From Prorocentrum cordatum (Eukaryota), in the NCBI GenBank assembly GCA_963575745.1, contig CAUYUJ010000164.1:1-64000 (forward strand): a stretch of 64,000 nt of DNA, read 5' to 3'. Shown here piece after piece: positions 25,311-39,364 of this stretch; position 1 is the stretch's first letter, and the number at the start of each line of letters is the position of its first letter. The notes under the pieces are model-generated. The model ran no database searches and was not told the DNA's origin. It was given only the letters and a program-made list of their open reading frames with translations. A program made the translations under genes and the position numbers.

Positions 25311-26099
25311 TTCGAGGCCTCCACCCACTCCCCGGTGCCGGTTTTTCACCCCGAGTCGTTCCTGCGCGGTCCAGGGGCCCCGCGAACGCAGGCGGAGAAT
25401 CGCCAGAAGCCGCCTGTCCCGACTTCTCCGTGATCCAAGGGGGTTACACCCCAGGAGGAGGAGGAGGAGGAGGAGGAGGAGGAGGAGGAGGAGGAGGAGG
25501 AGGAGAAGGCGGAGGAGGAGGAGGAGGAGGAGGAGGAGGAGGAGGAGGAGGAGGAGAAAGAGGAGGAGGAGGGAGGGGGAGGAGGAGAGGGGGAGGAGGA
25601 GGAGGAGAAGGAGGGGAGGAGGAGGAAGAGGAGGAGGAGGAGGAGGAGGAGGAGGAGGAGGAGGAGGAGGGGGAGGAGGAGGAGGCGGAGGCGGAGGAGG
25701 AGGAGGAGGAGGCGGCGGAGGAGGCGGAGGAAGCGGAGGAGGAGGAGGCGGAGGCTCGAAGGGCCCTGGGAGCCGAAGGGCCCAACGGGAGCCTCGAGGT
25801 CCGCGTCGAGCCCGCCGGCCGGGCCGCCGCCGTGCTCCCCGCCGCCCGGCCCGCGCAGCTCGCGCAGCTCGCGCAGCGCGCGGGCGCCGTGCGCGGCGCC
25901 CGGCCGCGGCGCCGCGGCAGCGGCGCGCGTTGGCCCCGCGAGGGGGCCGCCGCCGCCGGGGCCCTCCGGCAGGCGCCCGGTGGGCACCTGCCAGGGCCCT
26001 AAACCGAGAGCGTGCCAGGGCCCTGCCATGGTCCCACATCCCAGACCCCCTCGCGCTGTGAAAAAAACACGACGGGAGGTTTGTCGCTATCCCAGAGCA

Positions 26100-26220
26100 T
26101 CCAATCCACAGAAAAAAATGTGGATTCACATTTCTCCTATCGATCCACATTTTTTTTGTGGATCGACATTTTTTCCGGGGAATCCACATTTTTTTTTGTG
26201 GATCCACATTTTTTTCAGTG
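26100..26220. repeat. Left subterminal repeats (TGTGGATCCACA-type palindromes with A/T tracts)
   Basis: Several variants of AAAAATGTGGATCCACATTTTT, mirrored at 38575-38665. Confidence 0.85.
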
Positions 26221-26387
26221 TTCGCTGAGTTTCACGATTTTTTCATGATTTTTTCTTGAATTTTTCATTAATTTTTCTTGAATTTTTCTTGAATTTGCTT
26301 TTTCGTTTTCTTAGTATTAATGTTTACTCGGGTATTTAATGTAAAAACGCAAGTGATACATGATGATTGTAAGCGCTGGAGCTCATT

Positions 26388-26655
26388 GTGAGGACGTTCC
26401 GAATGAGAGTGGTTGACAGTACTCTGAACCTCGGATGCCACCAGTGTAGTGGCGGGCGGATTATTGCGAACGCTTGAACTTATTCTGAGGACATCCCGAA
26501 AAAGAGCCGTTGACAGAACTCTGAGCCTCGGACGCCACCAGTGTAGTGGCGGGCGGATTATTGCGAACGCTTGAACTTATTGTGAGGACATCCCGAGAAA
26601 GAGCCGTTGACAGAATTCTGAGCCTCGGACGCCACCAGTGTAGTGGCGGGCGGGA
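26388..26655. repeat. 97-bp tandem repeat, ~2.7 copies
   Basis: CCAGTGTAGTGGCGGGCGG recurs at 26441, 26538 and 26635. Confidence 0.9.
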
Positions 26656-26984
26656 TTGACCGTTGCTGTAACTAGCCCCTCTTTGACGTGGCCGAAATCG
26701 AACCATGACCACTCCCCACCTCAGTGATGAGAGCGATGATTCCTAGATCCCCGAAGACATTTACGCGAGGTACGAAGATCCAGAGTTTGATCCTGTGCAC
26801 TACAGCATGTATAACTACGGGGGTAGAGATCGCACGCGCCAGGGACAATGACGAGGACGACGGGGACGACCCTGACGACGACCCAGACGACGACCCCGAC
26901 GACCACGGGGACGGAGGGACCGATAACGACGACGGTCGACCTGAAATGCGTATGGACTTGTGGGCCGACGACGGTCGACCTCGA

Positions 26985-27060
26985 ATGCCGCGCTTGTGGG
27001 ATCTCACTTTCGGCCCTGACCATGGTCAGGGCCGAAAGTGAGATCCCACAAGCGCGGCAT
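26985..27060. repeat. Perfect 76-bp palindrome without spacer
   Basis: ATGCCGCGCTTGTGGGATCTCACTTTCGGCCCTGACCA|TGGTCAGGGCCGAAAGTGAGATCCCACAAGCGCGGCAT. Confidence 0.95.
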
Positions 27061-37221: not shown

Positions 37222-37789
37222 GTTGCCACTCTCGCGTGCATCCTCTGGCCCTGCCACCCTCCCCCCGCCAGCATCACATATGAACACATATCTCCTCTCT
37301 CCAACTCTCAGCCTGCTCTCGCTTTGGGCAGCTTGCGCTTCAAGCTGCAACAGTCGGTATTGGCAATTGTGAAAAAATAGGTCTCGTAAAAGCTACCTGA
37401 AGCAATTCTTCGGGCAAGTCTTGTTTTGGAACGCGCCTGGATCCACCGATTGCTATTGTTCCGATATTTCTGGTGCCACTTCTAGAGACTTGAGGCCACG
37501 TCTGAGGAGAAATGTTCGAGCATACTCAAAGCAACGTTTCTGGAAGGACATTCGGAACCGTTGGAAGGATCAAATGAGGGATATCAATCCGAAGTTGTCT
37601 GGTACCCTGCCCATTAGTCCACAGGCTACCGCCATTTTGCCGCTGCCCCGTCCACTTCACGGAGGAGGAAAAGGAAATAGAAGAGGAGGAGGAGGAGGAG
37701 GAGGAGGAGGACAAGGAAGAACAGAGTAGGAGAAATAGTTACTCCACAGGCTGACGCCAGTCCGCCGATACCCCGTCGACTTCAGCGGC

Positions 37790-38512
37790 AGCAGCAGTGG
37801 CAGTAGCAGTAGCAGTAGCAGTAGCAGCAGTAGTAGTAGTAGTAGTAGTAGTAGTAGTAGTAGCAGTAGTAGCAGTAGTAGCAGTAGTAGCAGTAGCAGT
37901 AGCAGTAGCAGTAGCAGTAGTAGTAGTAGTAGTAGTAGTAGTAGTAGTAGTAGTAGTAGTAATAGAAGTAGTAGTAGGAGTAGTAGTAGTAGTAGTAGTA
38001 GTAGTAGTAGTCGTAGTGGTGGAAGTAGTAGTAGTAGTAGTAGTAGTAGTAGTAGTAGTAGTAGTAGTAGTAGTAGTAGTAGTAGTAGTAGTATAGTAGT
38101 AGTAGTAGTAGTAGTAGTAGTAGTAGTAGTAGTAGTAGTAGTAGTAGTAGTAGTAGTAGTAGTAGTAGTAGTAGTAGTAGTAGTAGTAGTAGTAGTAGTA
38201 GTAGTAGTAGTAGTAGTTAGTAGTAGTAGTAGTAGTAGTAGGTAGTAGGTAGTAGGTAGTAGGTAGTAGTAGTAGTAGTAGTAGTAGTAGTAGTAGTAGT
38301 AGTAGTAGTAGTAGTAGTAGTAGTAGTAACTAGTAGTAGTAGTAGTAGTAGTAGTAGTAGTAGTAGTAGTAGTAGTAGTAGTAGTAGTAGTAGTAGTAGT
38401 AGTAGTAGTAGTAGTAGTAGTAGTAGTAGTAGTAGTAGTAGTAGTAGTAGTAGTAGTAGTAGTAGTAGTAGTAGTAGTAGTAGTAGTAGTAGTAGTAGTA
38501 GTAGTAGTAGTG
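37790..38512. repeat. (TAG)n/(CAG-TAG)n microsatellite, ~720 bp, inside the transposon
   Basis: Direct reading. Confidence 0.95.
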
Positions 38513-38574
38513 GTAATACGCCAAAACGTGAAATTCAGGATTCGTGAAAAATTCCTGAAAAAATCGTGAAAAAA

Positions 38575-38665
38575 ACAAAAATCCACAAAAAAAATGTGGA
38601 TCCACATTTTTGTGTTTCCCTGGTGTGGATCCACAAAAAAAATGTGGATCCACATTTTTTCCGGG
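38575..38665. repeat. Right subterminal repeats
   Basis: AAAAAAATGTGGATCCACATTTTT palindromes matching the left end. Confidence 0.85.
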
Positions 38666-39364
38666 ACCGACGAATTTTTCCGGGGATTGGATGGTCTGGG
38701 ATTATCGGCCTCCGGGGGCCCTCACCGGGCCTTGGGACCGTCAGAAAACGACTCAGAATGAAAAACCGGTCCTGGGGAAGGGGTCCAGACTTCTGGGGGT
38801 CGCGTCATGAAACATTCATGACGTCGGGGGTCTGGGATTGGAGCGCCCTGCAAGGGTCCTATACCAGGGCCGTGCCAGGGTCCCACCAGAAGCCAACCAG
38901 GGTCATACCAGGGCCCAACCAGGGTCAAGTCCTGGCATGACCCTGGCAGGGCCCTGGTACACCCCCTAGGCAGGACCCTGGTGAGACCTTGGTACGGCCG
39001 CAATAGTACCCTGGTAGGACCCTCCCCGGAGATCCCCAGATCTCCGACGATGTCCCAGACACAGGTGGTCGCGTCGTGGAAAAATCGGGAGGGGAAGTCT
39101 TTGGCCGCGTTCGGCCTATAGGGCCCGTGAAAGAACGACTCAGGACGAAAAACCGGTCCCAGGGAAAGGCTCGGGACTTCCAGGGACCCCATAATTATTG
39201 AAAACATAAGGACGTGGCATGTCTGAGATGATCCTTGCCTTCGGCTTCAGGGGCCCGTCCCCGGGCCCTCGGCGGCCCCGGCCGTCAAAAACAGAGCTGG
39301 CACCCACACGTGCCAGTGCGTCCAGGGAGCGGGGGAATGGGTCGGGAACTCTGGGGCCGCGGAT

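Follow-up and report, generated by a model that had tools for sequence, protein, structure and literature searches.

What is the 12.6-kb segment at positions 26091-38700 of a 64-kb stretch of the Prorocentrum cordatum genome (contig CAUYUJ010000164.1 of assembly GCA_963575745.1, positions 1 to 64,000 of the forward strand; called the window for simplicity), and does it travel with a working DNA methylation gene of its own? An initial annotation, made from the sequence without database searches, had described it as a complete CACTA-like DNA transposon that carries a gene resembling DNA methyltransferases (DNMTs). Our analysis makes it likely that the segment is one complete, probably autonomous, low-copy cut-and-paste transposon with a DDE transposase of the type found in the CMCT clade (the RAG1/EnSpm/Mirage/Chapaev/Transib/Plavaka-related transposases), with a miniature inverted-repeat transposable element (MITE) as its relative, an accessory gene (gene 3) and a captured methyltransferase-like gene (gene 2) that is most likely catalytically dead. 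The coordinates of all features are listed in Table 1.

The segment is a discrete insertion, bounded as a single element by terminal inverted repeats (TIRs). The two 17-bp repeats are identical at 16 of 17 positions (combined consensus CCCAGA[GC]CATCCAATCC) and give the element the termini CCCAGA..TCTGGG. A scan of the whole window allowing up to three mismatches returned two matches, which are the element ends (0.27 expected by chance). Just inside the ends lie two arrays of the palindrome TGTGGATCCACA. With up to one mismatch it occurs six times in the window, three times at each end of the element and nowhere else (0.12 expected), and the matching TIRs and mirrored subterminal repeats described in the initial annotation were thus reproduced. 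At the outer edges, the dinucleotide AT at 26089-26090 recurs at 38701-38702 as a 2-bp target-site duplication (TSD). The element interrupts a repeat of ~187 bp, the host MITE, and five other copies of this repeat in the window are uninterrupted at the insertion point (GTCGC(T/C)AT(T/G)TTC(G/A)GCC), where they read ..GTCGCTATTTTCGGCC... Measured against these empty-site copies, a 2-bp duplication alone restores the length of the repeat. Two other assignments were tried and rejected: with AT counted as part of the TIR the empty site would come out 2 bp short, and with a 3-bp TAT duplication it would come out 3 bp short.

Assembled contigs of four public runs were also aligned to the region, parts left uncovered being uninformative. 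In run X1, 11 contigs of the left flank pass at 26090 straight into the right flank TTTCGGCCTCC.. (reading TTTCGGCCTCCGGGGGCCC..), and contigs of runs X1 and X2 break at 26039/26040 and at 26090. The AT duplication and the empty site provided by the host MITE, both claimed previously, are therefore documented by five copies in the window and by the 11 X1 contigs. Runs X2 and X3, which are metagenomes, contain short near-identical pieces of several element genes; these indicate the presence of the organism or the element there and do not show independent insertions.

The interrupted MITE has inverted termini of its own, CCCAGACCCCC..GGGGGTCTGGG, and its terminal octamer CCCAGACC is the same as the first eight bases of the right TIR of the element. 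When the window was scanned for MITEs, with both termini (CCCAGACC..GGTCTGGG) required at a distance of 150-230 bp, nine further copies were found, ten including the split one, clustered on both sides of the element. Identical dinucleotides flank 6 of the 10 copies, all of them composed of A/T; at a chance rate of 0.068 per copy, the probability of at least six matching flanks is 1.6e-5. Elements that end in this way thus duplicate 2 bp of their target at A/T dinucleotides, which is also what the 12.6-kb element did. Because the octamer termini and the 2-bp A/T duplication are common to both, we regard the MITE as a probable non-autonomous relative that would depend for its movement on this transposase or one closely related to it. 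The summed contig depth of run X1, which is not a copy number, was 169 in the MITE bin versus about 1-6 over most of the element. No description of this MITE was found in the published literature.

The rightmost gene of the element encodes the putative transposase. A search with its open frame (P0004, 35254-37218, 655 codons) gave 5 relatives among 8000 scored candidates, the best of which (P0005) is 36% identical. With residues 70-590 of P0005 as the query, 29 relatives were obtained among 2859 candidates, representing clusters of up to 140 member sequences, and none of the 29 carries a precomputed Pfam domain. Compared with its relatives, the open frame contains an extra 92-codon insertion unique to the window protein and lacks the N-terminal domain, so a spliced model of four exons was read from the DNA. 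This model has 602 or 600 amino acids (aa), no internal stop and a terminal TAG, and its predicted introns have the donors GT, GC and GC and the acceptor AG throughout. A hidden Markov model (HMM) of 21 relatives, built with the window sequence left out and run on every stop-to-stop segment of the window on either strand, matched exon 2 (E = 1.4e-5), exon 3 (E = 2.2e-130) and exon 4 (E = 5.2e-44) and nothing else. Exon 1 is below the length for the HMM and starts with MGGKRGGIRQRL, in agreement with the family N-terminus GGIRQ(R/Q)L.

Conservation was counted in an alignment of 22 sequences (A6) over the 21 rows other than the window protein, 19 of which reach the C-terminus, using the numbering of the P0004 read-through. 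D149, D257, C280 and H340 are present in 21/21 rows and C283 and D337 in 20/21; towards the C-terminus, H592, W612, Y614 and E617 are present in 19/19 and H596 in 16/19. The resulting order in the window protein is D149, D257, C280xxC283, H592xxxH596, E617, with 108 residues from the first to the second aspartate, 23 from D257 to the start of the C280 motif and 21 from the end of the H596 motif to E617. We infer from the motif layout that D149, D257 and E617 are the catalytic DDE residues. The window transposase retains 64 of the 71 columns with a conservation of 85% or more (relatives 49-67 of 68-74), and two of its seven mismatches are due to intron read-through. With all conserved family motifs in place, this copy looks intact, as was claimed in the initial annotation for a spliced protein of ~600 aa. 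All members of the family known so far are unnamed proteins from metagenomes and Logan, and among viral contigs neither the transposase nor gene 2 had a relative.

The motif layout together with the TSD supports a placement of the transposase in the CMCT clade. According to PMC12730594, this clade is composed of EnSpm/CACTA, Mirage, Chapaev, Transib/RAG1, Plavaka, ESTA and Lanisha, its transposases have the layout D, D, C(2)C, H(3)H, E, and its elements have TSDs of 2-5 bp and termini that are usually, if not universally, 5'-CA..TG-3'. The same order of D..D..C(2)C..H(3)H..E is found in the window transposase, the 2-bp duplication falls within the range of the clade, and the element likewise has TIRs and subterminal repeats. 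The spacings (D-D 108, D-C 23, H-E 21) are close to those of RAG1 (D600, D708, C727/C730, H937/H942, E962). Large size combined with several genes, as seen here, is also known from CACTA elements.

EnSpm transposases are defined by the models Transposase_21 (tnp2) and DUF4218, and neither was matched by any of the 22 family members at E <=10. EnSpm/CACTA in the strict sense is moreover ruled out by the CCCAGA termini and the 2-bp TSD of the window element, as elements of this kind have CACTA (CAC..GTG) termini and a 3-bp TSD in the account of PMC12730594. The same account gives a 2-bp TSD and TGT..ACA termini for PlavakaA and a TA TSD for ESTA. The window element shares the 2-bp duplication with both of them, but its CCCAGA..TCTGGG termini differ from those of PlavakaA, and the element and its MITEs use AT, TT, AA and TA, in contrast to the exclusive TA of ESTA. 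Mirage TSDs also measure 2 bp. No match at the sequence level was obtained to Mirage, PlavakaA or ESTA, and the Atlas neighbours of the family consist of 29 unnamed clusters and one Plavaka cluster (0.91, 148 shared features) that serves as a lead only. The designation as CACTA-like can thus be kept in the wide sense of the CMC/CMCT group, on account of the catalytic-domain motifs, and has to be given up for CACTA proper on account of the termini, the TSD and the Pfam result (0/22).

Three co-oriented cargo genes had been proposed to accompany the transposase. Co-oriented frames do exist, but there are four of them (gene 1, ORF1b, gene 2 and gene 3, ORF standing for open reading frame) rather than three, homologs were found for genes 2 and 3 only, and gene 3 is likely a protein of the element and not cargo. 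A scan of metagenome contigs with a two-sequence transposase alignment yielded six loci; from the transposase match, two of them (L002 and L004) extend upstream by more than 5 kb. Contig L002 (11.8 kb, 1-11821), which is independent of the window, encodes the intronless transposase P0005 at 6152-7939, 36% identical to that of the window. Its first ORF, cut by the contig end, is a homolog of gene 3 (tblastn E = 2e-9; blastp E = 3e-12, 24% identity over 131 aa) and lies ~5.5 kb upstream of the transposase homolog in the same orientation. Because this partner is common to transposases that are only 36% identical, gene 3 probably encodes an accessory protein of the element. A second protein, TnpA, is also encoded by CACTA elements. 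Gene 3 had no match in Pfam or PDB, and its second exon showed no similarity to the second ORF of L002. The other ORFs of L002 gave weak RING-finger matches only, several of them being co-oriented and Cys-rich or RING-like, and none is a relative of gene 2, gene 1 or ORF1b. L002 may represent another multi-gene element of the same lineage; contigs L001-L004 contained no TIR or palindrome motifs, and the ends of L002 were not found.

Gene 2 was the basis for the proposal of a methylation gene. Its open frame (P0002, 29651-31285) holds a conserved domain at 29738-30445, and a GC-AG intron (30453-30632) is predicted from the frame, the length and the family spacing between conserved KK and YP. 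The gene had no match in Pfam, and a word-based search with the domain recovered 0 of 2491 candidates. An exhaustive HMMER search with residues 30-265 retrieved 424 cluster representatives (50% identity) at E <=1e-3, 35 of them at E <=1e-10 and one at E <=1e-30; the closest relative, P0010, is 40% identical. Applied to the window, the family HMM detected the gene 2 domain with E = 1.2e-54 and did not detect the C-terminal exon. Prokaryote genome contigs gave a 2.1-kb contig of a metagenome-assembled genome and a marginal match for gene 2, and nothing more. One relative from Logan, P0038 (1175 aa), combines a methyltransferase-like N-terminus with a weak, sub-threshold C-terminal RVT_2 match (E = 1.2e-4); it could be either a family member carried by a retroelement or the product of merged gene calls. 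An N-terminal signal peptide considered for gene 2 was dropped, similar short hydrophobic N-termini before a conserved FG.T motif being present in the relatives.

The resemblance of gene 2 to C5 methyltransferases appears in the predicted fold and in distant profile comparisons. The alignment used comprised the window domain and 59 of 150 listed matches, mostly near-full-domain ones, with 91 left out, and the AlphaFold (AF2) model built from it reached a predicted local distance difference test score (pLDDT) of 87.3 and a predicted template modeling score (pTM) of 0.87. In a Foldseek search of the PDB, 21 matches had E <=1e-3, the first 14 rows were all DNMT3A/B, DNMT2 or DIM2, and the best match was 6u91_A (E = 2.4e-4, TM 0.46). 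Most BFVD matches were cytosine methyltransferases of phages and giant viruses (best E = 2.2e-6), and C5 methyltransferases were among the VIA structure matches of the model as well. Profiles were compared by hhalign with 13 bacterial PF00145 proteins and 12 PF00106 dehydrogenases (SDR). Against the PF00145 set the gene 2 family scored 38.1 (P = 4.5e-4, probability 33%, 72 columns) in a register running from motif I (ElfSGvGs on LFAGiGG) to motif IV (AP.CSSw on GfPCQafS), in which the family Cys falls on the catalytic PCQ Cys. The controls gave P = 0.95 for the family versus the dehydrogenases and P = 0.35 for the transposase versus the methyltransferases. A permissive extension of the alignment, of negligible confidence, set ENP on ENV and S-x-A-Y-P on the Q-G-F-P region of motif IX.

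Among C5 methyltransferases such as M.HhaI, DNMT3 and DNMT1, which the Rossmann-type predicted fold of gene 2 matches best, the family finds collinear counterparts for its motif I (F/W-S-G-x-G), an acidic residue after strand 2, a motif IV Cys and, at low confidence, a motif VI E-N-P. It differs from them in having no recognisable target-recognition domain or motif X and in its C-terminal C-x-C..H segment, which is foreign to DNMTs. The initial annotation had called the gene DNMT-like, and we consider this a fair name for the family at the level of predicted fold and distant profile only.

In the copy present in the window, residues at the putative catalytic positions have been replaced. Position 94 is Phe (TTC, 30017-30019) and position 199 is Thr, where 59/59 aligned relatives have Cys and Lys, respectively. 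Positions 95-96 are Asp-Gln in place of the Ser found there in 43/59 and 51/59 relatives. Motif I reads E-I-F-A-G-S-F, with Gly38 kept (58/59 in the family) and Phe at the second Gly position (Gly in 40/59). Residues E34, G38, G86, P92, E156-N157-P158 (58, 53 and 58 of 59 in the family), S161, C186, W208, C216 and H223 are retained. Overall, gene 2 matches 24 of 35 highly conserved columns (0.69), the lowest value among the 60 sequences (others 0.70-1.00, median 0.94), three of its 11 misses being artefacts of the truncated piece used. A quick IQ-TREE tree placed it in an eight-member subclade (Shimodaira-Hasegawa-like approximate likelihood ratio test, SH-aLRT, 99) with an end branch of 1.57 versus a median of 0.81. 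Because Phe stands for the motif-IV Cys and Thr for the invariant Lys, it is unlikely that the gene 2 protein is an active C5 methyltransferase.

A mechanism consistent with these data can be outlined. The DDE transposase would recognise the 17-bp inverted ends, probably aided by the three palindromic sites inside each of them; the transposase or the gene 3 protein may bind at the 3+3 palindromes and the TCATGA-type repeats. Cutting and rejoining would be performed by the DDE active site with its putative Cys2His2 zinc site, and the excised element would then insert with a 2-bp stagger at an A/T dinucleotide, which in this copy lies in a ~187-bp MITE with the same terminal octamer. The element would be autonomous and might also drive the MITEs. 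Gene 2 would have been captured from a large cellular or mobile family, would then have lost catalysis and may now be a decaying passenger or a non-enzymatic derivative comparable to DNMT3L.

It could be objected that the segment is not one element, unrelated solo ends or MITEs bracketing host genes and the transposase gene being derived from something else. A single copy was observed, and the internal A/T-rich repeats at 32150-32470, which are like the left subterminal repeats, could hint at a composite history. However, the ends mirror each other down to the number of palindromes, the same dinucleotide stands on both sides of them, deletion of exactly 26091-38702 recreates the contiguous MITE present in five window copies and 11 X1 contigs, and a third TIR-like site is absent from the window at <=3 mismatches, which makes such an assembly of unrelated parts scarcely conceivable. 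The reading that builds on the initial annotation, that gene 2 encodes a working DNA cytosine methyltransferase serving the element as its own chromatin and methylation module, in the manner of a cut-and-paste counterpart of the Symbiodinium DNMT retrotransposons, agrees with a frame that is open over ~460 aa, with the preservation of Gly38 in motif I, of acidic residues after strands 2 and 3 and of E156-N157-P158, and with a predicted fold nearest to C5 methyltransferases. Precedents are described for DNMTs in retrotransposons of dinoflagellates (PMC5890265) and for TET/JBP genes in fungi, where the carriers are DNA transposons that include EnSpm and Plavaka (PMC12730594). Yet Phe occupies the place of the Cys that aligns with the catalytic Cys of PF00145, Thr that of a Lys present in 59/59 relatives, and several other highly conserved positions are altered; a diverged gene 2 variant in run X1, with Ser, is also devoid of the Cys, and methylation activity is known for no member of the gene 2 family. 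A working module of this kind is very unlikely in our estimation.

Two further explanations start from a catalytically dead gene 2. It may be a passenger without any role for element or host, a captured copy of a host gene that decays neutrally. The loss of two invariant residues, the lowest conservation score of 60 and the long terminal branch are as expected for such a passenger, as is the difference in the former Cys codon between the window (TTC) and X1 (TCC), typical of an unconstrained site, and on L002 no gene 2 relative lies in the 6 kb upstream and the 4 kb downstream of the transposase gene. On the other hand, ~460 codons are still open, the structural core has preserved most of its residues and the predicted fold is of high confidence; part of the divergence of gene 2 belongs to its subclade, since P0010, its closest relative, is divergent too (0.78). 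Neutral decay is a serious possibility, which we rate a little below even. Alternatively, the dead protein might be kept for a non-catalytic action, for example as a partner or decoy in the manner of DNMT3L, diverting or weakening host methylation silencing of the element, in a widespread marine-protist lineage related to RAG1/CACTA with the MITEs as its non-autonomous offspring. DNMT3L is an inactive paralog that lacks catalytic residues, a lack it shares with this copy of gene 2. We think of such a role as rather doubtful.

Several findings weigh against our reading of 26091-38700 as an autonomous CMCT-type transposon with a related MITE, an accessory gene 3 and a captured, inactivated gene 2. 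No second copy of the element occurs within the window, as DNA or as protein, which bears on mobility, autonomy and co-mobilisation alike. In hmmscan searches 0/22 members of the transposase family matched any Pfam transposase model, a difference from the CMCT clade at the level of HMMER similarity, and a profile search of PDB sequences returned no RAG1, Transib or other relevant match. The termini CCCAGA..TCTGGG depart from the CA..TG that most of the clade has. Similarity between MITE and element comprises the 8 terminal bases and a TCATGA-type motif and nothing further. L004 contains no gene 3 homolog, and the gene 3 link is thus found in one of two contigs. As to gene 2, 0/60 family sequences matched PF00145 (E <=0.1), other relevant Pfam models or NCBIfam, the family profile had no match among PDB sequences, and the family has P-x-C where canonical C5 methyltransferases have P-C. 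At codon 94 the sole contig from X1 has TCC (Ser); it belongs to a diverged variant in which 32 bp (30010-30041) contain five substitutions and an insertion of 3 nt, and the Phe codon is documented by the window sequence only. Splice sites throughout the element are predicted from the DNA.

Genes of the DNA methylation toolkit have been found beside transposition genes before. PMC5890265 reports DNMT genes captured by retrotransposons of Symbiodinium and charophytes, with key residues reportedly kept, and mentions DNA transposons encoding a DNMT in marine viruses; PMC12730594 describes DNA transposons of fungi that encode TET/JBP dioxygenases, some of them EnSpm or Plavaka. The window element resembles both the retrotransposons and the fungal elements in this pairing. 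It is distinguished from the fungal carriers by a methyltransferase-like gene in place of a demethylase, and from the DNMT retrotransposons by its cut-and-paste type and by the loss of the catalytic Cys, in contrast to the key residues that PMC5890265 reports as kept. Our literature searches turned up no account of a DNMT-like gene carried by a cut-and-paste transposon in dinoflagellates or other protists.

Cut-and-paste transposons of the CMCT clade, large multi-gene ones included, are well known. New are a transposase family without a Pfam profile, termini of an unusual kind, the association of the element with a MITE, a gene 3 that is conserved, and a passenger from an unannotated C5-methyltransferase-like family. 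As a single copy whose passenger has no catalytic Cys, the element is an interesting variant and not a new kind of system. For the transposase family it provides a reference copy that is exact and apparently intact, together with its ends, TSD, empty site and gene models, and it ties a MITE abundant in this genome to a candidate autonomous partner. The analysis also brings to light a large unannotated C5-methyltransferase-like family (424 clusters) that is open to direct assay. Should related elements have copies in which the Cys is intact, the known capture of methylation genes would extend from retrotransposons and fungal TET-bearing transposons to protist cut-and-paste elements.

Table 1. 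Features of the 12.6-kb element, the interrupted MITE and further MITE copies in the 64-kb window. Gene models are predicted.
Feature	Position	Strand	Details
MITE without matching flanking dinucleotide	12789-12991		
MITE without matching flanking dinucleotide	23047-23222		
MITE	24458-24643		TSD TT
MITE without matching flanking dinucleotide	25122-25310		
MITE, split copy	26040-26090 and 38701-38837		TSD AT
Host MITE, left part	26040-26090	+	begins CCCAGACCCCC; last two bases are the left TSD AT; from BLAST of the flanks and aligned copies
Left TIR	26091-26107	+	CCCAGAGCATCCAATCC
Left subterminal array	26119-26208	.	three TGTGGAT(C/T)(C/G)ACA palindromes with T runs between; tandem repeat of period 19
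A/T-rich short repeats	26230-26312	.	TTTCATGAATT-type; similar ones at 32287-32470 and 38540-38573
97-bp tandem repeat	26374-26653	.	2.9 copies
Gene 1	27271-28269	+	exons 27271-27881, 28071-28266; 269 aa; GT-AG intron; acidic tail
ORF1b	28906-29349 (codons 28906-29346)	+	147 aa; N-terminal KRPAA-type basic repeat
Gene 2	29717-31288	+	exons about 29717-30452, 30633-31285; 463 aa
Internal A/T-rich region	32150-32470	.	between genes 2 and 3; TTTTTCATGAAT repeats; 93-bp unit twice; like left subterminal repeats
Gene 3	32837-34307	+	exons 32837-33874, 34140-34304; 401 aa; GC-AG intron; Lys-rich, coiled-coil-like
Transposase gene	34878-37221	+	exons 34878-34972, 35080 (or 35086)-35253, 35406-36495, 36772-37218
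(AGT)n microsatellite	37802-38515	.	~236 units; inside the element, adjoining the right end
Right subterminal array	38595-38654	.	three exact TGTGGATCCACA palindromes
Right TIR	38684-38700	-	reverse complement is CCCAGACCATCCAATCC
Host MITE, right part	38701-38837	+	begins with the right TSD AT; ends ..GGGGGTCTGGG
MITE	39365-39549		TSD AT
MITE	39905-40091		TSD AA
MITE	40144-40330		TSD TA
MITE	40492-40678		TSD TT
MITE without matching flanking dinucleotide	41631-41810		

Gene 1 and ORF1b show a coding-like pattern of GC content over the three codon positions (GC1>GC2<GC3). Homologs of gene 1 were sought in Pfam and PDB only, where no meaningful match was obtained, and ORF1b had no match in Pfam; part of ORF1b (29135-29320) is covered by a near-identical contig of run X3. 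A perfect 76-bp palindrome (26985-27060) is located just upstream of the predicted start of gene 1. GC donors, and a G that follows the acceptor AG, give the predicted splice sites of the element a dinoflagellate-like character. The dinoflagellate spliced-leader motif had 0 matches in the window, which is uninformative. Rfam and tRNA scans of the element gave no match, and nothing above chance was obtained in Pfam, NCBIfam and PDB sequence searches with genes 1 and 3, ORF1b, minus-strand ORFs and the large ORFs in the neighbourhood.

Diverged contigs of run X1 cover the left subterminal region 26210-26815 with 10 differences and one 97-bp unit fewer, the joint of the variant contig being at 26519>26617. 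Together with the diverged gene 2 variant at 30010-30041, they hint at a second copy or an allele of the element. The bin 34181-34581, part of the spacer that separates gene 3 from the transposase gene, reached a summed X1 contig depth of 126 and probably contains a repeated or low-complexity segment. Outside the element, four very long overlapping open frames of 858, 526, 1096 and 787 codons occupy 3-9461 on the plus strand; they had no Pfam match and show a strong skew of A over T. An assembly gap of 100 N is located at 53543-53642.

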